A stretch of DNA of 64,000 bases. It comes from an uncultured Gammaproteobacteria bacterium. GTDB lineage: Bacteria; Patescibacteriota; Microgenomatia; UBA8517. Under the pieces are notes generated by a model. The model did not search any database, was not told the origin of the DNA, and worked only from the letters and a program-made list of their open reading frames with translations. The DNA lies in contig CAYISM010000001.1 in the NCBI GenBank assembly GCA_964366085.1, forward strand, positions 17,211 to 81,210, given 5' to 3'. This document shows, in pieces, positions 28,891 through 54,577 of the stretch (position 1 is the stretch's first letter; each line of letters starts with the position of its first letter). The position numbers and the translations under genes were made by a program.

Positions 28891-28942
28891 GTTTATACAA
28901 GAAGTCTAGCATAAACTGCCGTGACCGTGCTAATATTTAAGC

Positions 28943-30100: not shown

Positions 30101-30124
30101 AAATGTATAATCGGCTTCATTCAG

Positions 30125-30574: not shown

Positions 30575-30646
30575 TTTGCAATCATGAGTAGCATTTTGGG
30601 GGATCAAAATCACTTAACGAGAATTGCAAATTCGAGTAAGTGGAGT

Positions 30647-31786: not shown

Positions 31787-31920
31787 ACAGGATTAACTTT
31801 ATACCAATTTTACCTTAATTTACAATATAAAATAGTAAAATTGGGGATCATAGCCATCGCAGTTTGCTTGCAAACTGGAGTATGATGGATATATCAAACT
31901 ATACTGATAAACAAGCTATG

Positions 31921-33523: not shown

Positions 33524-34107
33524 TATTTAAATTTGTCCGGAAAAGTTTCTCTTAAAGATTTTGCGTTCAAATCCTTTTCCGCAACAATCGGATTTTTAAT
33601 TGGCCACTTGATATTCAGATCTTCATCGAACGGTTTTATTGCAAAAGAAGAGCCGGGTGTCCAATAAGCATTGACTAAGTAAAAGTAATGAACGGGGCCT
33701 TCGATTGCACAGATAGAATTTCCGATACCTTTCGGCAGAAACAAAGCCCTCTTTGGTAAATTCCCGCCAGTATTGTCAAAAAGAAATTCTTCGTATTGTC
33801 CAAAAGTTGCGCTTTCCGGCCTTAGGTCAACAACAGGCACCCACATTTTACCAGTTGCCGAGTAAACAAGTTTGTCCCATCTTTCGGCATGAATTCCCCT
33901 TATGGCCCCTGTTTCAGACATCGAGTGGTTCATTTGAACAGGCAAAAACTCAATTCCTTTTTCTTTGAGGAGAACTTCTCGCCAAACCTCTCTGAAAAAA
34001 CCTCTTTCATCTGAAACTGCAGATCTTTCAATTATTAAAACACCTTTAATTTTTCCTTCAGTAATTATAAATTCTGGAATCTTAATGCCAATCTTGGTTT
34101 CTGTCAT
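33523..34107 (-). CDS. rmlC: dTDP-4-dehydrorhamnose 3,5-epimerase
   Basis: Cupin-type RmlC motifs (GAIRGIHAERWDKLV, FLPKGIGNS). Start taken at the internal Met MTETKIG. Confidence 0.8.
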   Translation of the reverse strand: MTETKIGIKIPEFIITEGKIKGVLIIERSAVSDERGFFREVWREVLLKEKGIEFLPVQMNHSMSETGAIRGIHAERWDKLVYSATGKMWVPVVDLRPESATFGQYEEFLFDNTGGNLPKRALFLPKGIGNSICAIEGPVHYFYLVNAYWTPGSSFAIKPFDEDLNIKWPIKNPIVAEKDLNAKSLRETFPDKFK

Positions 34108-35144
34108 TTTCTTTCCCTTGCCCTTAGATTCTTTTGAACCTCCGGGTCGACAATCGGACGGCCTTCGCGCAAAGGCTTCCACCACCACTTATTTTCCTTA
34201 TACCATTTTACCGTCGCCGGAAGCCAGTCTTCAAATTTATGTTCCGGTTTCCAACCCAATACTCTTTTTATCTTAGAAGAATCAATTGCGTATCGTGAAT
34301 CGTGTCCCAATCTATGCTCGATATGGGTAATCCAAGATTCGTCCTTGCCCATCAATTTTAAAATTTCGCGGGTTATCTGGAGATTACTTCTTTCGGAGTT
34401 TCCGCCCACACAAAATGTCTGACCGATAATTTTTTCATCTTTCAGGGCGGCGTGGATAATCGTATCGATTGCGCGGCAGTGATCAAGCACGTAAATCCAA
34501 TCCCGAACATTTTCCCCTTTACCCATCAAGGGAACCTTCTTCCCCAAAATAAGATTAGTTATAAATCTGGGAAGAAGTTTTTCTGTGTCCTGCCAAGGCC
34601 CATAGTTATTCGAAGTATTGGTAATCGTTACAGGAAGGCCATAAGTTCTGTGCCAAGCCCGAACCATGTGATCAGCCGAAGCTTTTGCGGCAGAGTAAGG
34701 ACTATGCGGATTATAAGGACTTTTTTCGTTAAATTTTAAGTCCGGCCGATTTAAGGGAAGCTCTCCGAAAACTTCATCGGTTGAGACGTGATGAAAAAGT
34801 TTTACCCCCGCACCCAGCGCATTTTGCAGCATGACCTGGGTTCCGACTACATTTGTTTGCACAAAAACATCCGGGCCCAAAACACTTCTATCGACATGGG
34901 TTTCCGCCGCGAAATGGGCAACCACATCAATTCCTCTAATTGCTCTTTTTACAACTTCGGGATCACAAATATCGCCTTTAATAAACTTAACCTTCTTGCC
35001 TTCAATATCTTTTAAATTCTCTCTGTGGCCCGCATAAGTTAATTTATCAAGAACTACAATTTCATCTTTGGGGTATTTTTTGTGCCAGTAGTGGACAAAA
35101 TTGCTTCCGATAAATCCCGCCCCGCCGGTTACAAGTATTTTCAT
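34104..35144 (-). CDS. rmlB: dTDP-glucose 4,6-dehydratase
   Basis: MKILVTGGAGFIGSNFV...HFAAETHVDRS...YSAAKASADHMV (YxxxK). Confidence 0.9.
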   Translation of the reverse strand: MKILVTGGAGFIGSNFVHYWHKKYPKDEIVVLDKLTYAGHRENLKDIEGKKVKFIKGDICDPEVVKRAIRGIDVVAHFAAETHVDRSVLGPDVFVQTNVVGTQVMLQNALGAGVKLFHHVSTDEVFGELPLNRPDLKFNEKSPYNPHSPYSAAKASADHMVRAWHRTYGLPVTITNTSNNYGPWQDTEKLLPRFITNLILGKKVPLMGKGENVRDWIYVLDHCRAIDTIIHAALKDEKIIGQTFCVGGNSERSNLQITREILKLMGKDESWITHIEHRLGHDSRYAIDSSKIKRVLGWKPEHKFEDWLPATVKWYKENKWWWKPLREGRPIVDPEVQKNLRARERK

Positions 35145-35872
35145 ATTTTTACACCGTTCTTCCCGGCCCAATAGGCGCTGGCCTCAACAAGTGCATCAAA
35201 GGTACCGGCATCCCGCCAATAACCTTTTAGTTCCTCCCATTTCATTGTTCCTTCCTTTATGTAGAAATTTTGTATGTCAGTTATCTCCAGCTGGCCTCTT
35301 TTTGAGGGCTTAAGCTTTTTTGCGACTTGGAAACATCTGTTGTCAAAGATATAAAGTCCGGTTGAGGCATATTCTGAGGGTGGATTTTTGGGCTTTTCGA
35401 CAATTCCCACAATCTTTTTCTTGTCCTTTTTATCAAATATCGGAACTCCAAAGCGCTCGGGATCAGGAACCTTCTTAACAAACATTACCGAGCCTTTCTC
35501 AAAACGGGAAACCGCTTTTGAAATATCCGCATCGGTAGTGTTATCTCCGAGAATGACAATCACGGGTTCCCCTCCGGCAAAATCTTCGGCAACCTTAAGA
35601 GCATCCGAAATGCCTCCGGATGGATTTTCTTGATATCCATATTCGAGATGATTTAGACCAAGCTCTTTACCGTTTTTCAAGACCTGAATAAATTGTCCGG
35701 AATGGGGACCGCTAGCTATTACTATAATATCTGTGATTCCTGCCTTGACCAAAGTTTGAATCGGATAAAAAATCATAGGGCGATCGTAAATGGGAAGAAG
35801 ATGCTTGTTAGTCGCGTAAGTAAGCGGATAAAGACGTGTTCCCAAACCCCCTGCGAGAATTACGCCTTTCAT
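35141..35872 (-). CDS. rmlA: Glucose-1-phosphate thymidylyltransferase (short form)
   Basis: MKGVILAGGLGTRLYPLTYATNKHLLPIYDRPMIFYPIQTL. Confidence 0.85.
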   Translation of the reverse strand: MKGVILAGGLGTRLYPLTYATNKHLLPIYDRPMIFYPIQTLVKAGITDIIVIASGPHSGQFIQVLKNGKELGLNHLEYGYQENPSGGISDALKVAEDFAGGEPVIVILGDNTTDADISKAVSRFEKGSVMFVKKVPDPERFGVPIFDKKDKKKIVGIVEKPKNPPSEYASTGLYIFDNRCFQVAKKLKPSKRGQLEITDIQNFYIKEGTMKWEELKGYWRDAGTFDALVEASAYWAGKNGVKI

Positions 35873-35915
35873 ATAGTGTGCATTGTAAATTGTAAATTGA
35901 AAATTGTAAATTACT
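35873..35915 (-). promoter_or_regulatory. AT-rich region with three tandem TTTACAAT units upstream of the rmlA start; probable rml operon promoter or operator
   Basis: Minus-strand reading gives TAATTTACAATTTTCAATTTACAATTTACAATGCACACTATATG. Confidence 0.4.
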
Positions 35916-36424
35916 TAAGTGTGCTTGTCTGCAACTGAGGATGCGCCCCAGCTTTCGGGCTTGGTTTTGGCAACATACCCGTTTCCGGTAACCATACCCA
36001 CAACTTCCTTAATCATATCGCGGGTAGGTCCTAGGGGGCCTACGTCTATATGAATTTCCAAATCGTACTTGGCGGGAGTAACGGCGCGTCTAAGATCAGG
36101 AACAAGCTCTTGCGCAGTCTCAAGAGATAGAAGTGTTTCTGTATAAATTTTGTCGCGAAGAATAGGTTTCATCACAATCTTTTTCTTTTTCCAAAAATAT
36201 CTTGCTCCCCGGCCTTTCCTATGAATAACTATTGCTGTAACAAAATCAATTTCAGAGTTGCCGTTGGTATTTTTTGCCTGAGAATCAGTCCCAATCACGA
36301 GTCTATAAAAACTATCAGGCTCTTGGGATACAAAACTGGAAATTTCCGAAACCATCTTTTCTACACTTAAAGCCCCTATTGAAGGGCTGTAAAATCCATT
36401 TTTCACACTTTCCGTCATGCCCAA
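35915..36424 (-). CDS. DUF458/YkuK-like RNase H-fold protein
   Basis: YRLVIGTDSQ...EIDFVTAIVIH pattern. Confidence 0.45.
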   Translation of the reverse strand: MGMTESVKNGFYSPSIGALSVEKMVSEISSFVSQEPDSFYRLVIGTDSQAKNTNGNSEIDFVTAIVIHRKGRGARYFWKKKKIVMKPILRDKIYTETLLSLETAQELVPDLRRAVTPAKYDLEIHIDVGPLGPTRDMIKEVVGMVTGNGYVAKTKPESWGASSVADKHT

Positions 36425-36473
36425 TTATACCTCTTTTGAAGCTTTCGAGGCAAACTTTAACTGAAGCCAAATT

Positions 36474-36734
36474 TCAGACTCTGAAGATTAAAGAAAGGAC
36501 CACAACTAAGCCCAAAATCGCAATTAGCGTATATTCAATAACCACTTCGGGATATAAATCCTCATGAAGCATATGATGAACCACTCCCCAGATAACATAA
36601 GAAATAGCAGTCGCTGAAGCTACCGCGACTTGTAGAATCCGATCGTTAGGGAAAAACATAAAGATAGCGATAGCTGTCACGAAGATCGAAAAAAGAATCA
36701 CATAATGCGGTAAGTCTCGTAAAATTCTCTTCAT
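36474..36734 (-). CDS. Small 2-3 TM membrane protein, hypothetical
   Basis: 86 aa, hydrophobic helices. Confidence 0.4.
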   Translation of the reverse strand: MKRILRDLPHYVILFSIFVTAIAIFMFFPNDRILQVAVASATAISYVIWGVVHHMLHEDLYPEVVIEYTLIAILGLVVVLSLIFRV

Positions 36735-36756
36735 GGTAAGTGTTAATGGTTAATCA

Positions 36757-37644
36757 TTAAAGAATAATTCCGCCTCTTGCAATTAAGAGAATCGTTAGGA
36801 TCATTCCCATAAAAGATATGTGTGCCAAAGCTCTGCCGCCAATTCTTACAATTCTCTTTCTTGATACAACTATTACATCAATGGCCATAACTAATAAAAG
36901 AAATATTACCAGAGCCAAAGAAATTGATTGGGTAGATTTAAACGGAGAGATTGACGCAATTTTTTGCGGTTGGGGATTTGGAGCCGCTAGCGTACTTGCT
37001 ACTCCTAGTTGAGATTCCCCGGAAGGAGGCTTTACCGACTCGGACTTGGCAATTGGCACAGCAGGTATAGTATCTACATACTTACTGCCAAAAAACTGGA
37101 CAACAATCGTCGTGTCTACTCCGGCCAGATTGCCTTCAACAACGGCGACTCCGATATCTTTATATTTTGGAGACAGAAGATTCTCTTTGTGTGATGATGA
37201 ACTCATCCAAGCCTCAACTACGGATTTTGGATCAGAAAAATCCCGAGCCAAGTTCTCTCCGGCATAACGATATTTGTATCCCACGTCAGCAAAGAACTTC
37301 CAAGGCTGGTTCCCATCCGGAGAAATATGTGCCCAATATTCTTTAGCTAGCATATCTGTGCCCTTTGCCTGCGCTCCAGATGAAAGATTGGAATTCGCCT
37401 CAAGAGGAAGAAGTCCATTGGCAACCCTTTTCTCATTTGTAAGCCTTATTATCTCCTCCGGAGAAATATTTGCAGCATATCCTAAAACCTGCGGGCCAAA
37501 TCTTGAAACAGACGAAAGAACTACCTGATAAAAAACTAAAAATATTACAAAAAGAGCCAGACTTGAAGAATGTAAAATCTTGGCTTTTTGGTTATTCGAC
37601 TCTCTTGGAAAAAATAGATGCGCTAAAGACCGGGCAAATCTCAT
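36757..37644 (-). CDS. CAP (SCP/PR-1, YkwD-like) domain protein with N-terminal signal anchor and C-terminal TM
   Basis: GENLARDFSDPKSVVEAWMSSSSHKENLLSPKYKDIGVAV is a CAP domain signature. Confidence 0.7.
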   Translation of the reverse strand: MRFARSLAHLFFPRESNNQKAKILHSSSLALFVIFLVFYQVVLSSVSRFGPQVLGYAANISPEEIIRLTNEKRVANGLLPLEANSNLSSGAQAKGTDMLAKEYWAHISPDGNQPWKFFADVGYKYRYAGENLARDFSDPKSVVEAWMSSSSHKENLLSPKYKDIGVAVVEGNLAGVDTTIVVQFFGSKYVDTIPAVPIAKSESVKPPSGESQLGVASTLAAPNPQPQKIASISPFKSTQSISLALVIFLLLVMAIDVIVVSRKRIVRIGGRALAHISFMGMILTILLIARGGIIL

Positions 37645-37686
37645 ACTACAACCATGTTAGTTTCTATTTAGCTCAGAATCAATGAG

Positions 37687-37965
37687 TTACTTTATGATCG
37701 TTTTTCCCAAGAGAAAAGCCAAAAGGTAAAGAGAGAAGAGGATCAAAACTCCCCAACCAAAGCTAAAATTATTTATTCCCAAAACTTCCGGTTCAGGAGA
37801 GGAAGTTGCTTCTGGCGATGGCGATGGGGTTGATTCGGAGGGGACAGGACTTTCGTAAACTGCTTCTTCCTGGGCGTAAACAGTTGACGGAGTCAAATAA
37901 ATAAATGGAGACAGCGAATTTAAAACCACCAAAAAAGAAGCGGCAATCTTTGAAAGAATATTCAA
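37687..37965 (-). CDS. Small secreted/anchored Pro/Ser-rich protein, hypothetical
   Basis: Signal peptide, a PSxSTPSPSPE linker and a C-terminal TM. Confidence 0.35.
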   Translation of the reverse strand: MNILSKIAASFLVVLNSLSPFIYLTPSTVYAQEEAVYESPVPSESTPSPSPEATSSPEPEVLGINNFSFGWGVLILFSLYLLAFLLGKTIIK

Positions 37966-38029
37966 GTTTGCCGAAGTATATCATATCAACTCAAAAAAAG
38001 AAAACGGGGAATTTTTGATGCTTAAGGGC

Positions 38030-38628
38030 TTAAGGATTGTAGATCTTATATGCACCAGACTTATCTCCTGTGGTAAGCGTTACTTTCTTGACTTCTCCTT
38101 TTGCTCCATATCCAAACATGGTTGCGTTTTGATAATTTACGGAATCGTACATATCATCCATTCCGATCCAATGTCCCAACTCGTGAGTCAAGATGTTTTC
38201 TGCGTCATATGAATTTGAATCCGCACAGGCATTTGAATTTGCCTATCTATTGTTGTAGTACTGCCAGGGACAAAATTTACTTTTCCTCCGGAAGCAGCCG
38301 ACCAATCGTTAAATCCGTTTACCGCAATTGTTGAAAGATTTGAGGAACCAATCGACGAGGGAACACTTGCCGAATTTAAATTATATGTCCAGCTAGAGGG
38401 CAAATGCCAGTTTGTTGATCCGACAATGTTTGAAGACTCTGGATCAGTCAAACCACAAATTAAACTAGGCGAGGATATCCTCGCCGGCTTTTCTTTGTGG
38501 ACAAAAACTCGAACCTTAACTCCTTTGACATCGGGATCATCGTAAGTCTCATTTTCTTCGGGAATTTCTTTTCTTTCCTTACCTAAACTTAAGGAGGCCC
38601 CGACCAAAAAAGATAGCACTACTAACAA
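38030..38628 (-). pseudogene. Secreted snapalysin-like zinc metalloprotease (HExxHxxGxxD), apparently split by a frameshift near 38190-38245
   Basis: The ORF at 38188-38628 encodes a signal peptide and pro-region and stops at 38188. A different minus-strand frame at 38030-38242 encodes ...ADSNSYDAENILTHELGHWIGMDDMYDSVNYQN...KIYNP stop. Confidence 0.45.
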
Positions 38629-38658
38629 AACTAAAAGTATACTCTATTTGTCAATAGC

Positions 38659-39102
38659 TTAAATTAACTGAAATCTCTCTGCCAACTTTTTTAAATTTCC
38701 CGAGGATTTTGGTAAAACCTTCAGAATAATATACGAACTCAAACTTGCCCCAATTGTATCGAAAACCACATCCCTTACCTTTGGCTCTCTCCCGGGAGTA
38801 AAAATCTGATGAAACTCGTCGCTAATTCCATAAATTACTGCCAAAACAATTGAGTAGATAGCCGCTTTTTTCCTCTCGATTCCCGACCCTTTCAGAGCTC
38901 TATAAAGTAGTGTTGCGAATACGCCATACTCTAAAATATGTGCTGTCTTTTTCAAAATAAAATCCTGCCAATAAATTTCGGATGTTTTAATCGTTTGAAG
39001 GGAAGAAAACAGAAAAATTAAAGCCGCCCATAAAAATGGCGGCAACCAAAGATTTAAGACTTTTGAAGAATTATTCTTTCCCGTTTTCCCCATTCTCTTC
39101 AT
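38659..39102 (-). CDS. VanZ-like family membrane protein
   Basis: ISDEFHQIFTPGREP...DVVFDTIGA, characteristic of VanZ-like proteins. Confidence 0.65.
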   Translation of the reverse strand: MKRMGKTGKNNSSKVLNLWLPPFLWAALIFLFSSLQTIKTSEIYWQDFILKKTAHILEYGVFATLLYRALKGSGIERKKAAIYSIVLAVIYGISDEFHQIFTPGREPKVRDVVFDTIGASLSSYIILKVLPKSSGNLKKLAERFQLI

Positions 39103-40057
39103 TATACCCAACTTTTCTATTTTTAAACAAACTAAACAAAGCCGTAAAGATTAACGCAACTCCGGAAAAAATTAATATTAATGGTACGATTAGAGTCTTA
39201 AACTTATTATCTACAGATCCCTCGGAGGAAGAAGCTTCTTGGGAAGTCGGGCTTTGATCTCCTTCTCTTATTCCCAAAACAATTCCCTCTTGAGTAGCCG
39301 AAACTTCTTCTGTCGGTCTTGGAGTCGGGCTGGAAATTCTGGTCGGGGAAGGCGTGGGGGTTTTAGTTGGCGTGGGAGTTGATGTAGGAGTTAGGGAAGG
39401 AGTTGGTGTGGATGTGGATGTTGGAGATGGAGCAGGATCTGACGTAGGTAAGGGCGTTGAGGTTGCGCCAGAACTATTTGCACTTCCCGGTGTCCCACCG
39501 CTACTGATACTAACTTGCCAGTTAAAAGAATCATTACCAGAACCAGTCACACTTTTTCTTTCTAAAGACTTTCCATCTCCATCCGCTCCCCACGAATTTA
39601 AATAAGATACACTATCTACAATCAAACCTAAATTATTAGCTACTGCTACCGTATCTCCAGAATTATCAAATCCCCCACACATAGAAGATGAAGCTACGTG
39701 TAATGCCAAAGCATCAAGGTTAATACTAAACTTCTCATACGCTTCCGTTCCACTCCCACCATCCGTTATAATCACGTACTGACCTGCAGTAAGTAAAAAT
39801 CCAGACGATTGATATGTTTGTCCATCAGATTTCTTAACGTAACCAGCTTGTAATTGGCTATCACAAACTGTCCAATTTTCAAGGCTTGTACTTTCAGTTG
39901 TATATAGCTCAATCCACTCATTGTAATTATCATCTCCTTGATTAGGGTTATACATTACTTCATTTATCACCACCTGCGCTAAAATCTTTTGGGGAGAAAC
40001 CAAAATAAATAATATAACTATTAATAGAGTTTTAAATACTTTGATAAATCGATTCAT
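39071..40057 (-). CDS. Lamin-tail-domain (LTD) surface protein with Pro/Thr-rich linker and C-terminal TM anchor
   Basis: Signal peptide, then VVINEVMYNP...NEWIELYT LTD signature, then PTSDPAPSPTSTSTPTPSLTPTSTPTPTKTPTPSPT, then a C-terminal TM. Confidence 0.7.
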   Translation of the reverse strand: MNRFIKVFKTLLIVILFILVSPQKILAQVVINEVMYNPNQGDDNYNEWIELYTTESTSLENWTVCDSQLQAGYVKKSDGQTYQSSGFLLTAGQYVIITDGGSGTEAYEKFSINLDALALHVASSSMCGGFDNSGDTVAVANNLGLIVDSVSYLNSWGADGDGKSLERKSVTGSGNDSFNWQVSISSGGTPGSANSSGATSTPLPTSDPAPSPTSTSTPTPSLTPTSTPTPTKTPTPSPTRISSPTPRPTEEVSATQEGIVLGIREGDQSPTSQEASSSEGSVDNKFKTLIVPLILIFSGVALIFTALFSLFKNRKVGYNEENGENGKE

Positions 40058-40066
40058 CGAAGTGAG

Positions 40067-40510
40067 TTAAAGAACTTTATTGCTTCTCTTTTTCTTTAAT
40101 TCGTTTCTTAGATAAATCCACCCGCCAGATTTAGAACCTCCCATTGCTCCAATAGAGGCTATCTTTTCTCCCAAGCTTAGAAGAAACCTTTCAATTTGCT
40201 TACTCTTCAATATCTGATTAACAACTTCTTTGTAGCCATTTTTGTACTTATAAACAATCGCGTAATCAGCAATGGTCGATGTACTTACTCGAAGCAAATC
40301 AGAAATCTCTTGGTAGTTGTAACCCTTGGATATAAAAAGCCCTATTGCAAGCCTTTTTGCCAACATAATCCGCTCAGTCGGAGTAAGAAATTCCTCAAAG
40401 AAGACAGCTACTTTTTTCTTTGTATCAAGATTTGCGATTGTTTCTAAAAATACTTCAAATATCTCGTTATAAACGTCTTTTCGTACCGGATATTTAGAAA
40501 TTTGTGCCAT
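40067..40510 (-). CDS. TrpR-like (YerC/YecD family) DNA-binding protein
   Basis: FLTPTERIMLAKRLAIGLFISKGYNYQEISDLLRVSTSTI helix-turn-helix. Confidence 0.5.
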   Translation of the reverse strand: MAQISKYPVRKDVYNEIFEVFLETIANLDTKKKVAVFFEEFLTPTERIMLAKRLAIGLFISKGYNYQEISDLLRVSTSTIADYAIVYKYKNGYKEVVNQILKSKQIERFLLSLGEKIASIGAMGGSKSGGWIYLRNELKKKRSNKVL

Positions 40511-40546
40511 ATACTTCGATAAATCGAGTTATCGATATAGTTAATT

Positions 40547-41698
40547 CTACTGCAGATGCAAATATAAAGTCATTTTGCCACTGGAATGAAATATTCTAAC
40601 ATTGTTGCCAAGTGATGTTGTCCCTCTATAAAAATATGCCACTCCATCCTCAACTGCCCGCACAATCTTATCCGAACTGTCCACAATGTCTATTCCGTGA
40701 TGGAAACTTTCGTAGGGAGTGTGTCCGTAACACTGCGTTACCTTGGGGTTCGCCATCGGCCACGGCAAATTCCCTGAACCAATTGCACGATCCAACCCAT
40801 TTTTCTGTTGGACGTCGTCACACGACAAATACTCAAAATGAAAGGTTCTATTTTGCAAAACAGAAATGGGTGATTCGTTTCTGGTTGAATACCAACCAAT
40901 ATTTCCCTTAAAATCCTCGTTATGCTGTGATTCTGTAAGATTATAATACCCAAAATGAAGATGGGGGCCGGTTGAACGGCCGGTATTGCCCATTAAGCCT
41001 ATCATCTCTCCTTTTTTAACTTCTCTTTTGCCTGTAAATTGTGAATTTGCAAGCGCTTCAAGTTCTAATTGTGCCTCTCTCAAAAGACTCTGATACCTTT
41101 TCTCATCATTCCTAGTTACCAATAACAAACTTGCCTTTGCAATTTTCTGGCTATTTAAGTTTGCCTTTTGTTTTTCCAATTGTGCCTGCAACTCTTCCTG
41201 AGTCTCTTTTTCTGCCTTATAAGAAGTTTGTGCTTTTTGAAGACGCATAAGTAGATCTCTGTCGGCTTCTTGAATTTTTTGCAAAAAGTTAAATCTTAAC
41301 GCCGCTTCAGATAGGTCGGATGCCGACAGTAAAAAAATCATCGGATCTCCCAACCTTGCCATCTTGTATGTTTCAACTGCCCTTGAAGAAAATGCCTCAG
41401 TTAACTTTCCCAATGACCCCTCCAAGAGATCTATTCTGCCTGTCAAAAGAGATATCTTTTCTTCAATTTGTGAAATCTTAAGCGAAGTTAATTTAATCTG
41501 TGCATCAAATTGTGCGATTTGATTAGATAAAGTTTTTGATTGGGCGGAGAGTCGGTCTGTTTCTTTTTGATACCTATCTATTTCTTGTTGAATTTCCTCT
41601 AATGTTTTTGATTCAACTGAACTTGTAAAATACCCTAAGCCCAGAAATACAAAGAAGAGAACCGAAAGAAGAACTAATAGTTTTTTGAAAAGATTCAT
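40547..41698 (-). CDS. EnvC/PcsB-like coiled-coil M23 (LytM) metallopeptidase, with catalytic motifs in permuted order
   Basis: N-terminal signal/TM and about 200 aa of coiled coil, then GNTGRSTGPHLHF (HxH motif), then HHGIDI (HxxxD motif), then GNNVRIFH...TLYLHL at the C-terminus. The 4-bp overlap with ftsX supports an FtsEX partner. Confidence 0.75.
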   Translation of the reverse strand: MNLFKKLLVLLSVLFFVFLGLGYFTSSVESKTLEEIQQEIDRYQKETDRLSAQSKTLSNQIAQFDAQIKLTSLKISQIEEKISLLTGRIDLLEGSLGKLTEAFSSRAVETYKMARLGDPMIFLLSASDLSEAALRFNFLQKIQEADRDLLMRLQKAQTSYKAEKETQEELQAQLEKQKANLNSQKIAKASLLLVTRNDEKRYQSLLREAQLELEALANSQFTGKREVKKGEMIGLMGNTGRSTGPHLHFGYYNLTESQHNEDFKGNIGWYSTRNESPISVLQNRTFHFEYLSCDDVQQKNGLDRAIGSGNLPWPMANPKVTQCYGHTPYESFHHGIDIVDSSDKIVRAVEDGVAYFYRGTTSLGNNVRIFHSSGKMTLYLHLQ

Positions 41699-42609
41699 TT
41701 CTCACGTCTTGCCCGAGAAATTGCAAGCAAACTCCCAACAAAAGCCAGTGTTAAAGCAATAATAATTTCACCGGCCAGAAAAATTCCAAAAAGAGAAAGA
41801 AAGTTTGGTATTCCTTTTGGAATCGTTGGAATATCACCAAAATAAGAAACTATCGAAGGCGCTAGGTATAGAACTGACACCAAAGCAGTTGTCCATCCAA
41901 CCAAAACCCCTGCCAAGCTATAAAGCGCCGACTCTATTAAAATTGGGTTTCTGATAAAACTCGGGGTTGCGCCTATTAGATTAAGTATCTCAACTTCAGA
42001 CTTTCTTGTTGATATTCTCATTCCGATTACTACTAATAGTACAAAAAACGAAGTTGTGCCCAGTACTGCTACCAACGCTATTCCTCCAAGCCTTAAATAC
42101 CAAGTAACGCGTCTTAATCTGGAAATAACATCCTCAAGTTTTGTCTCTCCTCCCAAACTTGCAGTAAAACCTACCTCGGAAACAATTGGTTCTTTTTTAA
42201 CCTGTTCTACCAGCTGGTTCGCAAAAGACAAATTCCTTAAGGAAAACTCAAGACTCGCGGGAAAAATTGAAGGATTTACAAGCTCCGATAAAAGAGGATT
42301 TCCCGAAGTTGCTTTCTTATAAATCCCTAACGCTTCTTCTTTTGTCACATATTTAACTTCCTTAACTTTAGGATCATTTGTGAGACTATTCTGTAACACC
42401 GCGATCTCGTCTGCCTTGGCACTATCTTTTAAAAAAGCAATAACTTGCGGTCTGGTCTCAAAGTAATTTAAAACCTGACTTGAGGAATAAACAAGAAGTG
42501 CCAAAATTGTGGAAGCAAAAAAGGTTAATCCTAAAACTAAAACTGCTGCAAGCGCTTGAAAAGGCGAGCGTCTTATATAATCAAATGCGGTTTTAAAGTG
42601 AATGTTCAT
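41695..42609 (-). CDS. ftsX: Cell division ABC transporter permease FtsX
   Basis: 304 aa; 1 TM, large extracytoplasmic loop, then 3 TMs; directly downstream of ftsE. Confidence 0.8.
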   Translation of the reverse strand: MNIHFKTAFDYIRRSPFQALAAVLVLGLTFFASTILALLVYSSSQVLNYFETRPQVIAFLKDSAKADEIAVLQNSLTNDPKVKEVKYVTKEEALGIYKKATSGNPLLSELVNPSIFPASLEFSLRNLSFANQLVEQVKKEPIVSEVGFTASLGGETKLEDVISRLRRVTWYLRLGGIALVAVLGTTSFFVLLVVIGMRISTRKSEVEILNLIGATPSFIRNPILIESALYSLAGVLVGWTTALVSVLYLAPSIVSYFGDIPTIPKGIPNFLSLFGIFLAGEIIIALTLAFVGSLLAISRARREK

Positions 42610-43265
42610 TTTCCAGTCTTTCCTTCTTTTAATTCTATAACTCTTTTACCCAGTTTAGAAATTATTTCTTTATTGTGAGTTGCCATTATGATAGTTTTTC
42701 CTTCTTTTTTAATTTTTTCGAAAAGATCCATCATTGAATCTGCCGTTTCCCAGTCCAGGTTTCCGGTAGGCTCATCTGCCAAAATAAGTTTTGGGTTAAC
42801 AATCAAAGCTCTCGCCAAAGAAACTCTTTGAAGTTCTCCCCCGGAAAGTTGTGCCGGAAAAAGATCGGATCGGCTTGAAAGTCCGACAAGATTAAGTACA
42901 TGTTTCACTCTTTCTGCCCATTTTTCCTGAGGCAAATCAATAACTGCCAAAGCAACGTCGACATTTTCTCTCACGGTTCTTTCGGGAATAACTTTGAAGT
43001 CCTGGAAAACGACGCCTATTTTTTGCCTATATTTTGGAATTTCACCCTTTCCCAATTTGGATATATCTTTACCGCCAAAAAGTATCTGTCCCGTGTCGGG
43101 CAATAGTTCGTGTAAGATAAGCCGCAAAATTGTTGTTTTTCCTGCTCCTGAAGCTCCGGTTATAAAAACAAATTCTCCCTCTTTGACTTCAAAAGAAATA
43201 TCCAGAAGTGCCTTTATATTACCAAAAAATTTTGAAACCTTTTTAAATTCAATTAGAGCAGTCAT
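42606..43265 (-). CDS. ftsE: Cell division ATP-binding protein FtsE
   Basis: Walker A GASGAGKTT, LSGGELQR signature, Walker B ILADEPTGNLD. Confidence 0.9.
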   Translation of the reverse strand: MTALIEFKKVSKFFGNIKALLDISFEVKEGEFVFITGASGAGKTTILRLILHELLPDTGQILFGGKDISKLGKGEIPKYRQKIGVVFQDFKVIPERTVRENVDVALAVIDLPQEKWAERVKHVLNLVGLSSRSDLFPAQLSGGELQRVSLARALIVNPKLILADEPTGNLDWETADSMMDLFEKIKKEGKTIIMATHNKEIISKLGKRVIELKEGKTGK

Positions 43266-43316
43266 TACTTAAGAAGATTAGCAAATGAAAACGAAGAAAA
43301 CCAGGGCAAAGTACTT

Positions 43317-43832
43317 TCACTCGATCACTTTAACCTTACCAACATCCATAAGCCAACCGGCTTTCTTGCCTTTTGTCGTTTCTCCCCAAACCACTACTTT
43401 TTTGCCTATAAAATTCTGAAGATCAATTACGGTTGAGGTTAAGTATACGTTTTGTGAAGGCCCACCCGTTCTTTCCAGATGATGCGTTCCTTCGCCGCTT
43501 ATCCCGCCTTCGACAAGTGTTCCTTCGGCAGAATCTCTGAACGTTTTATCGTCAACTATTCCGACCTCGCCGGATCCTACTTTTGCTGCTGAGCCGGCTT
43601 TACTGCCCAATACCGAACTTTTGCCCGTTAAAATCCATCCGCTTCCTACCCCCGCCAAAACCAAAACACCTACAATTAAAACTGTTTTAAGAAAGTCCTT
43701 ATTTTTTATAAAAGAAACTTTCTTGACCAACGAGTCAACACTGGGCGTCTGGGGAATTACCGGCTGTGAAGTGTTTGTACCTTCCATATTGGGTCCAATA
43801 TAGCACCTTATATTACGTCTAGCAAGTAGCAC
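43317..43832 (-). CDS. Hypothetical membrane-anchored protein
   Basis: 171 aa ORF with one TM. Its start overlaps the prfB stop in TAATG fashion. An internal Met at residue 15 is an alternative start. Confidence 0.4.
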   Translation of the reverse strand: MLLARRNIRCYIGPNMEGTNTSQPVIPQTPSVDSLVKKVSFIKNKDFLKTVLIVGVLVLAGVGSGWILTGKSSVLGSKAGSAAKVGSGEVGIVDDKTFRDSAEGTLVEGGISGEGTHHLERTGGPSQNVYLTSTVIDLQNFIGKKVVVWGETTKGKKAGWLMDVGKVKVIE

Positions 43833-44905
43833 TACATCTTAAGTTCAGCCTCGATAAACTCGTCCAGTTCCCCATCCAAAACTCCTTCGGTATTTCCCGT
43901 TTCAACGTTTGTTCTTAAATCTTTAACCATTTTATAGGGATGCAGAACATATGAGCGGATCTGTGTTCCCCAAGAAGCCATGGTTCTTCCGCCCTTCAGC
44001 TCCTTTCTCTCGCTTGCCAACTCACTTTCCTTAAGGTGCCAAAGTTTGGATTTAAGAAGACTCAGGGCGTTTTTTCTGTTTTGCTCCTGGAAGCGCTCTG
44101 ATTGAGCAGAAACGGTAATCCCTGTGGGTTTATGAATAATCCTGACTGCGGTTGAAACCTTTTGGACGTTTTGCCCTCCTTTTGAAGAACTTCTAAAAAA
44201 CTGCAATTCTACATCTTCGTCCTTTATCTCAGTATCCGGCAAATCTACTTCTTCAAATTCCGGCAAGATTTCGACGAGGGCAAAAGAAGTCTGTCTTAAT
44301 TTATCAGCATTAAAAGGCGATTGTCGAACAAGTCTATGCGTTCCGGCCTCTTTTTTTAGATATCCGTAAGAATATGTCCCGGAAACTTTAAAAGTAACAC
44401 TTTTTATTCCTGCTTCCTCTCCCTCAGTCATGTCTAGTACATCCGTTTTCCACCCTCTTCTTTCGCAAAACCGGTGGTACATACGAAATAGCATGCTTGC
44501 CCAATCCATGGCTTCGACTCCGCCTTGCCCTGCGTGGATTGAAACTATGGCATTTTTGGCATCATACGGTTCGGAAAGAAATGAGGCCAGTTCAAATTTC
44601 TTTAAATCTTTTTCGATTTGATTAACTTCCTTCGTAAACTCCTCAGAAAATTCTTCGTCTTTGGAAAATTCTTCAAGAGTGTTAATTTGACTTTGCAAAT
44701 TCTCAAACTCGTCAATTTCTCTTTTTAAGTCCGAAAACTCTCGCATTAGCCTCTTTGCATTTTCCGGGTCATTCCAAAGATCAGGGTCGGTAGTTTTTGC
44801 CTCCGTCGAAAGTAACTCCGTTTTTTTTACTTCCAAGCTAAAGTTTTTGTCAATACCGGAGAATCTTTCTGTGAGTTCTTTTATCCTTTCCTTAAAATCC
44901 TGCAT
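43832..44905 (-). CDS. prfB: Peptide chain release factor 2 (single ORF, no programmed frameshift site evident)
   Basis: SPF tripeptide motif (RQSPFNA) and GGQ (SSKGGQNVQK). Confidence 0.9.
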   Translation of the reverse strand: MQDFKERIKELTERFSGIDKNFSLEVKKTELLSTEAKTTDPDLWNDPENAKRLMREFSDLKREIDEFENLQSQINTLEEFSKDEEFSEEFTKEVNQIEKDLKKFELASFLSEPYDAKNAIVSIHAGQGGVEAMDWASMLFRMYHRFCERRGWKTDVLDMTEGEEAGIKSVTFKVSGTYSYGYLKKEAGTHRLVRQSPFNADKLRQTSFALVEILPEFEEVDLPDTEIKDEDVELQFFRSSSKGGQNVQKVSTAVRIIHKPTGITVSAQSERFQEQNRKNALSLLKSKLWHLKESELASERKELKGGRTMASWGTQIRSYVLHPYKMVKDLRTNVETGNTEGVLDGELDEFIEAELKM

Positions 44906-44920
44906 GCGTAAAGTATACCA

Positions 44921-45388
44921 TTACGGAGCGCAAATGAGGGCTTTTACTTTTTTGGCATCGGTCGGGGTAAGTGTTTGAAATTTTTCAATGAAGCTCCCAA
45001 AAGATGTTTTTATTACGGACTCCTTTGCGTTTGATTGTGGGATCTGATTTGTTACTCCCAAAACATCAGCCAGTTTAGATCTTCCAATATCAATTGCGTT
45101 TACAATTGGTTTAGGAGCGTTTTTCCACCCTAAAACTTCAGTTAAAGCCGTCCTTCCACCAACAATAAGAAAACCCTCTAAAATAAGAGCCATTAAAAAT
45201 CCAAAGAAAAAACCAAAAAGTGCACCTTTAATTGACCAATCAAGCATGTGGCGTCTTAAGGAAGCAAGAGAAATTAAAAGTAAAAAAAGAAGGGCAATGA
45301 TTGCTCCGGCTTGTAAGTATGAAGGAGAGAAGGAATAGGACCCGAAGTTAAAGTTAAATTTACCGAATAAAGCTTGGACAGCATTCAT
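44921..45388 (-). CDS. Hypothetical membrane protein
   Basis: 155 aa, 2-3 TMs. Confidence 0.4.
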   Translation of the reverse strand: MNAVQALFGKFNFNFGSYSFSPSYLQAGAIIALLFLLLISLASLRRHMLDWSIKGALFGFFFGFLMALILEGFLIVGGRTALTEVLGWKNAPKPIVNAIDIGRSKLADVLGVTNQIPQSNAKESVIKTSFGSFIEKFQTLTPTDAKKVKALICAP

Positions 45389-45403
45389 ACCTTAATAATA
45401 GCA

Positions 45404-46024
45404 TCACTGGACTACTTCTTCCTCTTCAACTACATCGCCAGATGAGGGGGTACCCGAAGAGTTTGAGGATTCGGTTAGGCTAAACGTTGATGCAATTTTG
45501 TTTTGGGCATCTTCCCAAAAACCAGTATCTTTCGGCCCGCCTTGACTCTGTGAGGCAGGCCCTTCAACTAGATACAGAATTCCTCCGTCTATTGCTACTG
45601 TTAAAAGTTTAGAGCTTGTCGAGTATTGTTTAGCGGAAAGTCCAGCCAAAGTCGTTGCGCCAACCAACGACGCTTCTTTTACCCCCGAGGTTGACTTTAT
45701 CCATTCATCGGCTGTTTTGGCCGTTGTGTCAATAACGGTAATTTTTATCTCTCCTCCGGTCTTAGTTAAAGATAAAACCGAATAGGAAGAATCGTCATTT
45801 GGGGTTACATCTTTTACTTTTATCGACTTCGGGTATTCAAAAGAAAAACCTGCGTTGTCTTTGTATACTAAGGTTGCTTCTGTCGATTTTTCTGATGTAT
45901 CCGACTGGCCGGTATTTTTAACCTGACTTCCGGTTTTTGATTTGAAAAGAAAATAAGAAGTCGCCCCACCCAAAATAATGATCCCCATAACTACTAAAAT
46001 AATAAGTATTTGCTTCTTTGACAT
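45404..46024 (-). CDS. Hypothetical N-terminally anchored extracytoplasmic protein
   Basis: 206 aa, N-terminal TM, Ser/Thr-rich, with an acidic C-terminal tail. Confidence 0.4.
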   Translation of the reverse strand: MSKKQILIILVVMGIIILGGATSYFLFKSKTGSQVKNTGQSDTSEKSTEATLVYKDNAGFSFEYPKSIKVKDVTPNDDSSYSVLSLTKTGGEIKITVIDTTAKTADEWIKSTSGVKEASLVGATTLAGLSAKQYSTSSKLLTVAIDGGILYLVEGPASQSQGGPKDTGFWEDAQNKIASTFSLTESSNSSGTPSSGDVVEEEEVVQ

Positions 46025-46057
46025 GGTCTAATCTTCACTATATCATGAATTAAGTCC

Positions 46058-46486
46058 ATGAGAAAACTAGTCTTTTTAATTACCCTACTTTTTACTTTTT
46101 CATTACTATTTCCTAAGGGAGCGGAAGCAAAAAAGACACTACCAACAAGATCCGCAAAATCAAAAATAGCCTCTACAACCGGAAAAGTTGCAGTTTCGGC
46201 AAGATTCAGAAAAGACAGACGGGCAATTGTTGTATCTTTTGCAAATCTTGGTTCTGCATCTTCGGTTTCCTATATGTTAAGTTACGACACGCGGGGAACT
46301 TCACAAGGCGCCTCGGGAACAATAAGGCCAACTTCAGAAACCTCAATAACACGCGAACTTCTTTTCGGGACATGCTCACACGGAGTTTGCCGATATGATA
46401 GCGGAATTACTAATGCGAAATTTGTTGTAACTTCAAAATTAAATAGCGGAAAAACGATCGTCAAGACTTTCAGATTGAAAGTTTAG
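46058..46486 (+). CDS. Hypothetical secreted protein
   Basis: 142 aa with an N-terminal signal peptide; divergent from 45404-46024. Confidence 0.4.
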   Translation: MRKLVFLITLLFTFSLLFPKGAEAKKTLPTRSAKSKIASTTGKVAVSARFRKDRRAIVVSFANLGSASSVSYMLSYDTRGTSQGASGTIRPTSETSITRELLFGTCSHGVCRYDSGITNAKFVVTSKLNSGKTIVKTFRLKV

Positions 46487-46487
46487 A

Positions 46488-47174
46488 TTATCCAGGTGGA
46501 AAGGTTGGAGAAGCAGACGGTGATGCGCTGGGTGTTGGTGTCGCTGTTGGTGAAGGCTTTGGAGTCTGTCCCTTTCTAAGTCCGGTCACTACTTCAACAC
46601 TTTTTCCACTCAATATTCCTGTTTTGGTTTGTACATCTTTATAAATATCGTTTAAATTTACAGTTATTTCATCGATTGCCGATTGTGCCAGACTTTGATC
46701 GAAAATAACAATTGTTGTGTCAACGTCAGTTCTTTCCTTATTTCCAACCGTTATGGATGTGTAACCCAAACCCTTTAGCTTGCCTTGCAAATAAGCCGCC
46801 TCACCTGAGATAGAAGTACCATTTAGTACCTCTATTTTTATTTTCGTCTTATCAATCGGCTCAGCCGTTGGGGTTGGGGTTGGGGTTGAAGGTGAATTAA
46901 ACTCAACCGACCCGGTTGTTTCAGGAGGAATAGTTTCTTGAGAAATTCGTAATTTCCTTACTATAAAAAATCCGCCTATCAACGCGAGTAAAAGTAGGAA
47001 TACTAAAAGCATTACCGAGCTCTTATTCGAGGATTTGGGTCCTGGGCTATAATTTGAAAAAGATTGCGGTTCTTCTTTCGTCTCTTCCACGACTTCTTGC
47101 TGCGTCTCACCTTCTACTTTTGTATTCTCTTCCATGTGGCCGCAAGTATAGACATACCAAAACCTTTTTGTCAA
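46488..47174 (-). CDS. LytR_C-domain (LytR/CpsA/Psr C-terminal) membrane-anchored protein with Pro/Thr linkers
   Basis: IKIEVLNGTSISGEAAYLQGKLKGLGYTSITVGN resembles the LytR_C domain; TM anchor; TPTPTPT linkers. Confidence 0.5.
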   Translation of the reverse strand: MTKRFWYVYTCGHMEENTKVEGETQQEVVEETKEEPQSFSNYSPGPKSSNKSSVMLLVFLLLLALIGGFFIVRKLRISQETIPPETTGSVEFNSPSTPTPTPTAEPIDKTKIKIEVLNGTSISGEAAYLQGKLKGLGYTSITVGNKERTDVDTTIVIFDQSLAQSAIDEITVNLNDIYKDVQTKTGILSGKSVEVVTGLRKGQTPKPSPTATPTPSASPSASPTFPPG

Positions 47175-47251
47175 TTATCATTTTAGCCACGCTTTCTTTA
47201 GTTGAACTAAATCGTCATTTAAGATTAACTCTCTAATTCGTTTCATTAAAT

Positions 47252-47283
47252 TTCTTCTGAAGTTAGAAGAAGTCACTTTTTTT
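47252..47283. terminator. Weak hairpin (TTCTTCT-gaagtt-AGAAGAA) followed after 5 nt by a T7 run; possible terminator downstream of the FKBP and LytR_C genes
   Basis: 7-bp stem read from the sequence. The T-run is offset and the strand is ambiguous. Confidence 0.2.
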
Positions 47284-47289
47284 AAATTA

Positions 47290-47778
47290 TCACTCGACCT
47301 TTAGAAGTTCTACTTCGAAGATTAAAGTTGCGTTGGGGCCAATTACGCCACCCGCACCGTTTTCCCCGTAACCCAAATCAGGTGGAATCGTGAGCCGGCG
47401 CTTTCCGCCAACTTTCATTCCGGATACTCCCAAATCCCATCCTTTTATAACCTCGCCGACGCCTAAATTAAAGCTAAATGGTTGCTTTCTGTCATAAGAA
47501 CTGTCAAATTTGGTTCCATTCTCAAGGGTTCCCAAATAATCAACAGTTACCTTTTTGCCGGATACTGCTTCCTCTCCCGTACCAATCTTTATATCTTCGA
47601 TTTTTAATTGATTCATATCTTTTTCCTTCTCTTGATTAATGATATCAGACGGGGAACTTTGCGTCTCAATTAATGACGGATTAATTTCTTTTTTGTTTCC
47701 ATCCTTCAAAAAAATAAAGGCAATTAAGGCTACGAAAATTAAAATAACTATTATCAAGACAATTTTGACTTTTGACAT
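47290..47778 (-). CDS. FKBP-type peptidyl-prolyl cis-trans isomerase with N-terminal membrane anchor
   Basis: VTVDYLGTLENGTKFDSSYDRKQPFSFNLGVGEVIKGWDLGVSGMKVGGKRRLTIPPDLGYG. Confidence 0.8.
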   Translation of the reverse strand: MSKVKIVLIIVILIFVALIAFIFLKDGNKKEINPSLIETQSSPSDIINQEKEKDMNQLKIEDIKIGTGEEAVSGKKVTVDYLGTLENGTKFDSSYDRKQPFSFNLGVGEVIKGWDLGVSGMKVGGKRRLTIPPDLGYGENGAGGVIGPNATLIFEVELLKVE

Positions 47779-47800
47779 GCTGAAATATTTTAGCACTCTT

Positions 47801-47995
47801 TCAATTTGTAAAAAGATGGTAAAACTTATCATTTTCATCGTGTCCGGTTCTTGAAAGAAGGGTTGCGTTATATCCGAAGGCTGCTTCGTCAACGGTCAAG
47901 CCGGGAGGAGTATTAAGAATTCTATAAGAAAAAAATAAGGCCAGGGCGATTAAAACGATGCCCGCCAGAAAAATTTTCTTTAAAGTTTTATTCAT
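47801..47995 (-). pseudogene. Truncated N-terminal fragment (64 aa) of an ArnT/PMT_2-like GT-C glycosyltransferase
   Basis: TM helix then LTVDEAAFGYNATLLSRTGHDENDKFYHLF, which closely parallels the first-loop DE motifs of the genes at 655-2358 and 2374-3942. It stops after 64 codons and sits 10 nt from the left direct repeat. Confidence 0.4.
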
Positions 47996-48005
47996 TTCTT
48001 ACTCT

Positions 48006-48026
48006 TCCGCCTCTGCTGGAAAATGC
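48006..48026. repeat. Left copy of a 21-bp perfect direct repeat TCCGCCTCTGCTGGAAAATGC; a degenerate match continues about 25 nt further
   Basis: Exact match to 54503-54523. The flanks AATGGGGTACTGCACAG and AATAGGGAACCACACAG are also similar. Confidence 0.8.
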
Positions 48027-48071
48027 CAGTTAAATGGGGTACTGCACAGCATGGATCTAAATTATCCAATC

Positions 48072-53809: not shown

Positions 53810-53836
53810 CAGTTCAGATACTCCTTACATAGATTC

Positions 53837-53845
53837 ATATTACCA
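53837..53845 (-). promoter_or_regulatory. Extended -10-like element TGGTAATAT upstream of the VWA-protein gene; an AAGGAG SD lies at 53821-53826
   Basis: Minus-strand reading gives TGGTAATATGAATCTATGTAAGGAGTATCTGAACTGATG. Confidence 0.35.
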
Positions 53846-53931
53846 ATTAGCCAGTCCGTAAACAACGAATGATTTTCTGTTACCAAACAAAACTGAAACC
53901 TTTGTAATTGAGGTTACTGACATTTCTTGAA

Positions 53932-54431: not shown

Positions 54432-54502
54432 GTCAGTTTCTATTGTACATCTAAAGTGTACGATATCAAGACAACAGTTCCGGTAACGACATTTTTTGCT
54501 TA

Positions 54503-54523: not shown

Positions 54524-54577
54524 TATACGAATAGGGAACCACACAGTTAGCTCGCTTACTGCTTGCCCCTTCTAAAC

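Follow-up and report, generated by a model that had tools for sequence, protein, structure and literature searches.

Our analysis of a 64-kb stretch of DNA (the window, numbered here from its first position) supports a natural and conserved circular permutation of the M23 domain in a putative FtsEX-coupled hydrolase of many Patescibacteria. The protein carries the two motif-bearing pieces of the domain in reversed order behind a long coiled coil, and its gene directly follows ftsE and ftsX. We regard it as likely that this protein is a secreted, FtsEX-coupled peptidoglycan metallo-endopeptidase of a Microgenomates-like member of Patescibacteria, and that its circularly permuted M23 domain was derived from a tandem pair of such domains.

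The M23/LytM proteins, which include lysostaphin, LytM, EnvC, NlpD, ShyA, SpoIIQ and the Csd proteins, rank with the most intensively studied enzymes and regulators of the cell wall, and Patescibacteria are mostly uncultured and have reduced genomes. In the full-text literature searched, which comprised open-access articles, we found neither a published permuted M23/LytM peptidase nor a published FtsEX partner of Patescibacteria. The combination of FtsEX with a coiled-coil hydrolase is itself familiar; the permuted M23 topology stands out clearly as unusual and has apparently not been described before, and its functional consequence is what we infer below.

The gene and its neighborhood

The M23 gene lies on the minus strand (the earlier note on this DNA had not given the strand), with ftsX and ftsE directly upstream in the same orientation (Table 1). 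A 4-bp ATGA stop/start overlap was found at each of the two junctions, ftsE/ftsX and ftsX/M23, and by these overlaps the ftsE-ftsX-M23 operon is translationally coupled. The stop codon of the M23 gene is followed by 36 bp and then by a TrpR-like gene (PF01371); therefore, no frameshifted half of an M23 domain is hidden behind it. The earlier note had checked the same stop codon and downstream gene and dismissed a frameshift, with which our result agrees. No other M23-like fragment was detected by tblastn in the 64-kb window. The scan of the operon for promoters and terminators yielded counts at or below the shuffle expectation and was uninformative.

Table 1. Positions of the M23 gene, its parts and the two upstream genes in the window
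Feature	Position	Strand	Remarks
M23 peptidase ORF	40547..41698	minus	383 aa and TAG stop
TAG stop codon of the M23 gene	40547..40549	minus	
Predicted N-terminal signal peptide or membrane anchor, aa 1-29 MNLFKKLLVLLSVLFFVFLGLGYFTSSVE	41612..41698	minus	modelled helix 2-22
Antiparallel coiled-coil hairpin, aa 30-217	41048..41611	minus	helices 33-52, 57-115 and 129-217
First M23 piece (canonical C-terminal part), aa 218-283	40850..41047	minus	PF01551 model 60-89 = aa 224-253
HxH codons H246-L247-H248	40955..40963	minus	H246, L247 and H248 invariant in 116 sequences
New connector, aa 284-304 RTFHFEYLSCDDVQQKNGLDR	40787..40849	minus	joins canonical C-terminus to canonical N-terminus; contains C293
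Second M23 piece (canonical N-terminal part), aa 305-383	40550..40786	minus	PF01551 model 2-53 = aa 332-383
HxxxD codons H333-H-G-I-D337	40688..40702	minus	H333 and D337 invariant
H381 codon, His of Y-x-H-L, two residues from the C-terminus	40556..40558	minus	invariant in 116 sequences
ftsX, 304 aa, FtsX_ECD and FtsX permease	41695..42609	minus	PF18075, 54.4 bits; PF02687, 42.4 bits
ftsE, 219 aa, ABC ATPase	42606..43265	minus	PF00005, 128 bits

Domain organization

The N-terminus is basic and hydrophobic in 110 of 116 homologs, and the M23 protein is predicted to be secreted with cleavage of its signal peptide. Some 185 heptad-rich residues lie between this N-terminus and the M23 domain, and the tip of the coiled-coil hairpin falls at approximately aa 101-146. 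After the coiled coil stands REVKKGEMIGLMGNTGRSTGPHLHF, which carries the HxH motif (H246/H248). The first M23 piece comprises the strand V-x-x-G-x-x-IG, GNTGRSTGPHLHF (aa 237-249) with the HxH, a subfamily-specific insert (aa 256-283) and the canonical end motif P277..L281. The second comprises the pre-motif WPxP..TQCYGxTPY, HHGID, GNNVRIFH and the C-terminal TLYLHLQ, and the protein terminates with GNNVRIFHSSGKMTLYLHLQ, which includes H381. The connector (aa 284-304) has no counterpart in the PF01551 or PDB alignments, and the model gives it two additional strands (284-288 and 302-306). In a second subfamily ('GNSGYPGCSTGKHLHFEIRK'), the connection between the pieces is shorter.

The order of the elements described in the earlier note, namely HxH first after the coiled coil, then HHGIDI...GNNVRIFH...TLYLHL and then the end of the protein, agrees with the translation of the ORF. 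HLHF and HHGIDI are separated by 82 residues, where the note had given approximately 85. The catalytic ligands, all of which it had described as present, were found in the ORF (H246, H248, H333, D337 and H381) and are invariant in the family. In the HxH motif of M23, the second His is a Zn ligand and the first is catalytic. We take the Zn ligands of LytM (H210, D214 and H293) to correspond to H333, D337 and H248, and its catalytic H260 and H291 to H381 and H246.

Evidence for a circular permutation

The whole protein was matched by PF01551 with 63.7 bits and an E-value of 1.9e-17 (gathering score 28.7), as two partial matches. When the pieces were scanned separately, aa 224-253 aligned to model positions 60-89 with 34.4 bits and aa 332-383 to positions 2-53 with 33.5 bits, so that the protein presents the C-terminal part of the model ahead of the N-terminal part. 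This is the pair of reversed partial matches that the earlier note had proposed to look for. The same reversal was seen in the phmmer search against the PDB, in which aa 331-382 of the query aligned to residues 244-295 of 3slu (NMB0315) and aa 224-249 to residues 302-327. In the motif alignment to 3slu, HHGID corresponds to HtGiD, HLH to GPHLH, and H381 to YaHL. The second M23 piece was additionally aligned to DipM (10-87) in the search against the PDB.

We further prepared an un-permuted construct in silico, in which aa 300-383 were placed before aa 214-299. This construct received one collinear PF01551 match covering positions 2-89 of the 96 in the model with 76.1 bits, and was aligned continuously to 33 solved M23 chains, including NMB0315 (3slu), 6muk, ShyA, Csd3, LytM, lysostaphin, DipM and EnvC. 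The E-value to 3slu improved from 1.2e-08 for the native protein to 1.9e-13 for the construct. The native protein lacks the collinear order of PF01551, in which HxxxD, Y-x-H-L and HxH fall in one match; therefore, it is a homolog with a variant topology rather than a standard PF01551 member and is best called a circularly permuted M23 variant. No full-length M23 alignment in the canonical order, the result that the earlier note had named as fatal to its proposal, was obtained, and a collinear match appeared only after un-permutation. The proposal itself, swapped domain halves owing to a circular permutation or a rearranged tandem ancestor, is supported by the reversed matches to PF01551 and 3slu together with the construct. 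Judged from these alignments, the reversed motif order is no chance motif match. The breakpoint lies in the loop that connects the Y-x-H-L strand to the V-x-x-G-x-x-IG strand, and judged by sequence the arrangement is a textbook circular permutation.

Conservation and distribution of the permuted family

The search of 5.8 billion proteins for homologs returned 1201 matches, of which the best 120 were analyzed. These were mostly full-length (367-416 aa; five were shorter and apparently partial) and 40-66% identical. With strict motifs, HxH preceded HxxxD in 85 of the best 120 homologs and the canonical order was found in none of them. The other 35 bear variant spellings of the motifs; 12 of those were included in a 24-sequence alignment, and all 12 displayed the same permuted order. 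The C-terminal end Y-x-H-x-(Q/K/R) was found in all of the best 120 homologs (one ends two residues later). In the 116-sequence alignment, whose members are 40-65% identical, H246, L247, H248, H333, G335, D337 and H381 are invariant. Altogether, the permuted order is common to a family with more than 100 full-length homologs, which answers the call in the earlier note to check homologs in other Patescibacteria.

A homolog with 57% identity was found in the closed genome CP129472.1 (841,695 bp) and also in two independent read-set (Logan) assemblies. The gene order of CP129472.1 (prfB ... ftsE, ftsX, the M23 gene, LTD and VanZ) is identical in both read-set assemblies. The scan of one genome per species yielded 40 loci, and the named taxa among them were Woesebacteria, Collierbacteria, Gottesmanbacteria, Levyibacteriota, the Microgenomates group, Paceibacterota and 'Patescibacteria group'. 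TPA labels such as 'uncultured Gammaproteobacteria', which we regard as unreliable, are attached to many other loci, situated on contigs or chromosomes of 0.6-0.95 Mb. Of the 32 clearly homologous loci, 28 have ftsE and ftsX as their immediate upstream neighbors. In two of the other four, hardly any DNA precedes the gene; a third has ftsX at the edge of its contig, and the fourth is a second copy within its genome. In public annotations, the family members are called 'peptidoglycan DD-metalloendopeptidase family protein', 'CwlO-like' or 'EnvC', and the topology is not commented on.

In a single sequence, the reversed motif order is also what wrong joining of a contig or truncation of a tandem repeat would produce, and the gene could then be an artefact of frameshift or mis-assembly, or a decaying gene left with functionless remnant halves of a tandem M23 pair. 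We give this explanation almost no weight. More than 100 full-length homologs from independent assemblies, closed genomes included, have the order, the C-terminus and an intact ORF in common, and their catalytic residues are invariant. ORFs that are 40-66% identical and come from different sources are no copies of one assembly error. At the locus itself, the stop codon and the downstream gene were verified, no extra fragments lie nearby, and the gene is translationally coupled in its operon. Frameshift, mis-assembly, pseudogene and leftover fragments were thus excluded by family-wide conservation and the intact locus.

The domain alone was also searched with HMMER, exhaustively, against 1.84 billion representatives at 50% identity, and the top 150 were sorted. 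Approximately 40 of them match the whole permuted domain in one stretch; the others are either canonical M23 proteins, with two matching stretches each, or tandem pairs, with four. One representative (P0150) is an unrelated protein of 1118 aa that has no coiled coil and ends with the permuted module. Among close relatives, the permuted module has been swapped as a cassette, with a recombination break at approximately residue 206, a few residues before the junction of the coiled coil and the domain. P0150 and the cassette exchange imply that the module is autonomous.

Structure model of the permuted domain

In the AF2 monomer model, both pieces are packed into one compact domain with a pTM of 0.91 and a pLDDT of 95. 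No helix was modelled between the coiled-coil helix 129-217 and the strand 220-227, which are separated by a 2-residue gap. Foldseek found no significant match of the domain model in the PDB (the best hit, E = 1.1, was to unrelated proteins). As both pieces match M23 by sequence, we did not count this result against homology and attribute it to the sequential nature of the alignment, which limits its use on a permuted domain.

Exactly two Cys residues are present in the domain of 113 of the 116 sequences, forming one of two mutually exclusive pairs. The first pair, C293 in the connector and C323 in the pre-motif (TQCYG), was found in 85 of the 116 sequences, and the second, which combines the loop just before HxH in the first piece with a loop of the second piece, in 28. 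Both pairs are probably alternative disulfides in an extracellular domain, and their covariation provides independent support for the two pieces being packed together.

The two pieces might instead fold across protomers, the first piece of one complementing the second of another, so that an active site would exist only in an oligomer mediated by the coiled coil. Split half-domains with a poorly conserved linker between them (0.38-0.41; the connector, at 0.38, is the least conserved part of the domain) could in principle swap, and PcsB forms an inhibited dimer (PMC11627006). Against such an assembly, the AF2 monomer packs both pieces compactly with high scores, the connector and the insert together have the length needed to link the canonical termini in cis, and P0150 carries the module with no coiled coil at all. 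Consequently, we consider folding across protomers very improbable and favor a domain completed within a single chain.

Origin of the permuted domain

Tandem M23-M23 proteins (for example P0172, P0186 and P0158) offer a plausible source. In these pairs, the elements between the HxH of the first domain and the Y-x-H-L of the second follow one another as they do in the permuted domain, and the spacing between HxH and HxxxD (~55-82 aa) is comparable, whereas both domains of a pair are complete and canonical. The permuted domain retains complete canonical ends on either side of the connector, so its arrangement equals a tandem M23-M23 pair minus the first and last half-domains. Thus, we propose that the M23 domain would have been duplicated in tandem and the outer half-domains subsequently lost, and that duplication and deletion, occurring once, are the most likely origin.

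The phylogenetic analysis favors a single origin of the permuted cores with moderate bootstrap support. In the NJ tree inferred from 106 core columns, 48 of 49 un-permuted cores grouped in one clade that included none of the 38 canonical cores. Near-monophyly of the permuted cores was recovered in 24 of 40 bootstrap replicates, and the artificial junction may bias this tree. No partly truncated tandem intermediate was found among the representatives examined.

Two other candidates were rejected. Architectures provisionally classified as 'CNC' and considered as half-truncated tandems proved to be complete tandem M23 pairs in Pfam, in which one motif had been missed by the regular expression. 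The canonical coiled-coil M23 proteins of Campbellbacteria and Saccharibacteria were tried as ancestors; with identities of 37% and 32%, against 43-47% for unrelated-looking M23 proteins, they are not the nearest canonical relatives of the window domain.

Proposed function and mechanism

All five active-site residues are retained, which makes an active Zn enzyme, rather than an EnvC-like activator of amidases, the most likely reading of the M23 domain. A non-catalytic LytM factor of the EnvC kind, in which the permuted domain would be a scaffold activating another hydrolase such as an amidase, appears unlikely to us. FtsEX partners in monoderms (PcsB, CwlO and RipC) are hydrolases themselves, and the envelope of Patescibacteria is thought to be of the monoderm type. 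The NCBIfam model of EnvC (PRK11637) gave 16.9 bits against a cut-off of 270. The active sites of EnvC and DipM are degenerate and devoid of Zn ligands (PMC11627006), in contrast to the five active-site residues here, which are invariant in 116 sequences.

We propose that the FtsEX cell-division ABC system would act through the putative hydrolase as its output module. Its predicted secretion signal, long antiparallel coiled-coil hairpin and C-terminal globular cell-wall domain are the architecture of an FtsEX partner, and the cognate FtsX carries an FtsX_ECD domain. The CC_PcsB model (PF24568) matched aa 92-158 at positions 4-70 of 75 with 20.7 bits, below the cut-off of 27, and precomputed matches to the same model exist in many homologs. 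Synteny suggests that the coiled coil may bind the extracellular domains of FtsX; presumably, the hairpin tip, of the EnvC/PcsB/CwlO/RipC type, would dock on both of these.

The C-terminal 166 residues constitute one M23/LytM domain. The chain enters it at the strand that canonically follows the His of Y-x-H-L, runs through HxH to the canonical C-terminal end, crosses the connector of ~21 residues to the canonical N-terminus, and passes HxxxD before stopping two residues past the His of Y-x-H-L. The long second helix of the coiled coil (129-217) is thereby fused, via the 2-residue gap, to the domain beside the active-site His381, and movements of the coiled coil driven by FtsEX may act on the active site through this junction.

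More tentatively, the permutation may be a functional rewiring rather than a neutral accident, a reading to which we assign a rather low probability. The termini would have been moved to the loop after the Y-x-H-L His, leaving the force-transmitting second helix almost rigidly fused to an active-site strand, and ATP hydrolysis by FtsE could gate catalysis directly by shifting this strand and the C-terminus. Such a rewiring fits with three observations: the coiled coil is most conserved at its base next to the domain (0.64-0.66, against 0.55 for the putative FtsX-binding tip), no arm helix is present in the model, and the recombination break lies near residue 206. If true, mechanotransmission would differ both from that through the restraining arm of EnvC and from that in PcsB and RipC, whose CHAP or NlpC/P60 sites are occluded.

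The family is of interest in three respects. For protein evolution, it provides a clean, family-wide natural permutation in which the catalytic residues are kept, with canonical and tandem relatives at hand for comparison. For mechanism, a coiled coil attached beside the active site is a natural experiment on how FtsEX may transmit force to a hydrolase. For the biology of Patescibacteria, the protein is an apparent dedicated FtsEX-coupled division hydrolase of Microgenomates and part of Parcubacteria.

Comparison with known systems

Both pieces of the permuted domain are homologous to canonical M23 domains (LytM, lysostaphin, NMB0315/NG1686, ShyA/MepM, Csd3 and StM23), and HxxxD, Y-x-H-L and HxH are all shared. 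Among the FtsEX partners, EnvC (E. coli, V. cholerae and P. aeruginosa; 6TPI, 8TZL, 8I6O and 4BH5) is an FtsEX-bound murein hydrolase activator with a LytM domain. This domain has the canonical order and a degenerate site, its groove is filled by the 'restraining arm' helix, and it activates amidases without cutting peptidoglycan (PMC11627006). The window protein is, in contrast, permuted, has invariant catalytic residues, and in its model runs from the second coiled-coil helix straight into the first beta-strand without an arm helix. The coiled coil of EnvC reaches the domain at the canonical N-terminus via the arm, whereas that of the window protein reaches it at the strand after Y-x-H-L. 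With the PRK11637 score far below the cut-off and the Zn ligands and catalytic His present, the protein is not EnvC proper.

PcsB (S. pneumoniae), CwlO (B. subtilis) and RipC (M. tuberculosis) are FtsEX-controlled coiled-coil hydrolases of monoderm or mycolate bacteria. Their catalytic domains are Cys peptidases of the CHAP or NlpC/P60 type instead of Zn-dependent M23, and none has been reported to be permuted in the FtsEX context (PMC11627006).

Canonical coiled-coil M23 proteins also occur in other Patescibacteria, namely a protein of 431 aa in Campbellbacteria (CP011215.1, locus L038) and one of 485 aa in Saccharibacteria (locus L037). Like the window protein, they possess a signal peptide, a coiled coil and an active-looking M23 domain, and the pre-motif 'W-P...ITQ(F/C)(F/Y)GxTP(F/Y)S' and 'GNTGYSTGPHLHFGVY' are common to them; the un-permuted window domain is collinear with both, at the identities given above. 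They differ in having the canonical order HxxxD, YxHL, HxH and in their gene context: both follow gltX, and no ftsEX was found within 5 kb.

Natural circular permutants, with catalytic residues swapped in order, are described in another cell-wall-hydrolase superfamily in the passages of PMC6403190 on the NlpC/P60 families (YaeF/poxvirus G6R and LRAT-like; Anantharaman and Aravind 2003, as cited there). These differ from the present family in their unrelated papain-like Cys peptidase fold and chemistry and have no link to FtsEX. A general remark that barrel-sandwich-hybrid-type domains, M23 among those shown, occur in circularly permuted topologies has also been made (PMC11515920).

Divergence of the M23 catalytic domain from a close relative

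We compared window positions 39379..41081 with positions 5618..7255 of L044, a Logan contig from SRR22387928 that encodes the homologous protein P0020. From prfB through ftsE and ftsX as far as codon ~206 of the M23 gene, the two loci were 89% identical at the DNA level, but the similarity was lost abruptly near the junction between the coiled coil and the catalytic domain and was regained only within the gene for a lamin-tail-domain (LTD) protein. Given the drop in protein identity from residue 206 of the M23 protein through LTD and the high identity on the flanks (see the table), we regard the M23 catalytic cassette, the TrpR-like gene and the gene for the LTD surface protein as a divergent island, which probably arose by recombination.

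Features of the ftsEX-M23 region and of canonical-order relatives, with protein identities between the window and L044
Feature	Location	Strand or remark	Identity to L044
VanZ-like gene	window 38659..39111	next gene after LTD	80%
LTD (PF00932) protein gene	window 39071..40057	(-)	51%
TrpR-like HTH gene (PF01371, 147 aa)	window 40067..40510	(-)	53%
M23, aa 206-end		L044 copy likewise permuted	38%
C323 of M23	window 40730..40732
C293 of M23	window 40820..40822
M23, aa 1-205			91%
FtsX			91%
FtsE			218/219
171-aa ORF between prfB and ftsE	window 43317..43832	(-)
Canonical-order coiled-coil M23 gene	L038 4980..6275	Campbellbacteria CP011215.1
Canonical-order coiled-coil M23 gene	L037 4893..6350	Saccharibacteria

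Genes surrounding ftsEX-M23

Both in the window and in L044, the TrpR-like gene lies between the M23 and LTD genes, while it is absent from this position in the closed genome CP129472.1, in which LTD directly follows the M23 gene. The LTD protein bears a long low-complexity region rich in Pro, Thr and Ser, and a hydrophobic segment at the C-terminus. The synteny of the M23, LTD and VanZ trio across relatives points to a conserved cluster of envelope genes located 3' of ftsEX. The 171-aa ORF shares one base with the prfB stop codon, and its product carries an N-terminal hydrophobic segment. It had no Pfam match and is kept in L044 with 84% identity. Across the whole 64-kb window (1..64000), neither tRNA nor tmRNA genes were detected by ARAGORN, and no Rfam family reached the gathering threshold.

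Many of the records with the Patescibacteria-type locus (L004-L031) are titled 'uncultured Gammaproteobacteria' or 'Pseudomonadales', and those so titled are chromosomes or contigs of 0.6-0.95 Mb (e.g., OZ246397.1, 615 kb). One homolog is labeled 'Clostridia bacterium'. The taxonomic labels on these records look unreliable.

Properties and distribution of the permuted domain

Exactly two cysteines were found in the catalytic domain of 113 of the 116 family members in alignment A2. Two mutually exclusive pairs were recognized in this alignment, namely C293 with C323 (85/116) and one cysteine ahead of the HxH motif with another in a second-piece loop (28/116). These pairs are probably alternative disulfides, a prediction consistent with an extracellular enzyme.

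Some genomes possess two permuted paralogs. In CAZXMM010000001.1 (950 kb; L012 4998..6161 and L009), one copy lies 3' of ftsEX, whereas ftsEX is missing from the neighborhood of the second copy (387 aa). A single Collierbacteria bin contributed both L011 and L026. Furthermore, the large protein P0150 (1118 aa) carries the permuted module at its C-terminus (residues ~977-1118, ending in ...LISLYWHLQ), with neither a coiled coil nor any other Pfam domain. Judged from this architecture, the permuted M23 domain appears to be a mobile, self-sufficient module beyond the FtsEX context.

Comparison with known M23 structures and canonical-order relatives

Although the model of residues 214-383 was confident and this domain is clearly M23 by sequence, no M23 structure was matched in a Foldseek search against PDB, and the precomputed Pfam matches of the homologs are flagged 'weak' or 'faint'. 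The domain is a concrete example of a circular permutant missed by order-dependent tools.

The canonical-order M23 genes of L038 and L037 are directly preceded by gltX, and ftsEX was not found within 5 kb of them. Their proteins share the pre-motif 'ITQFFGNTPFS' with the permuted family. Patescibacteria thus possess both M23 topologies, in separate lineages and gene contexts.
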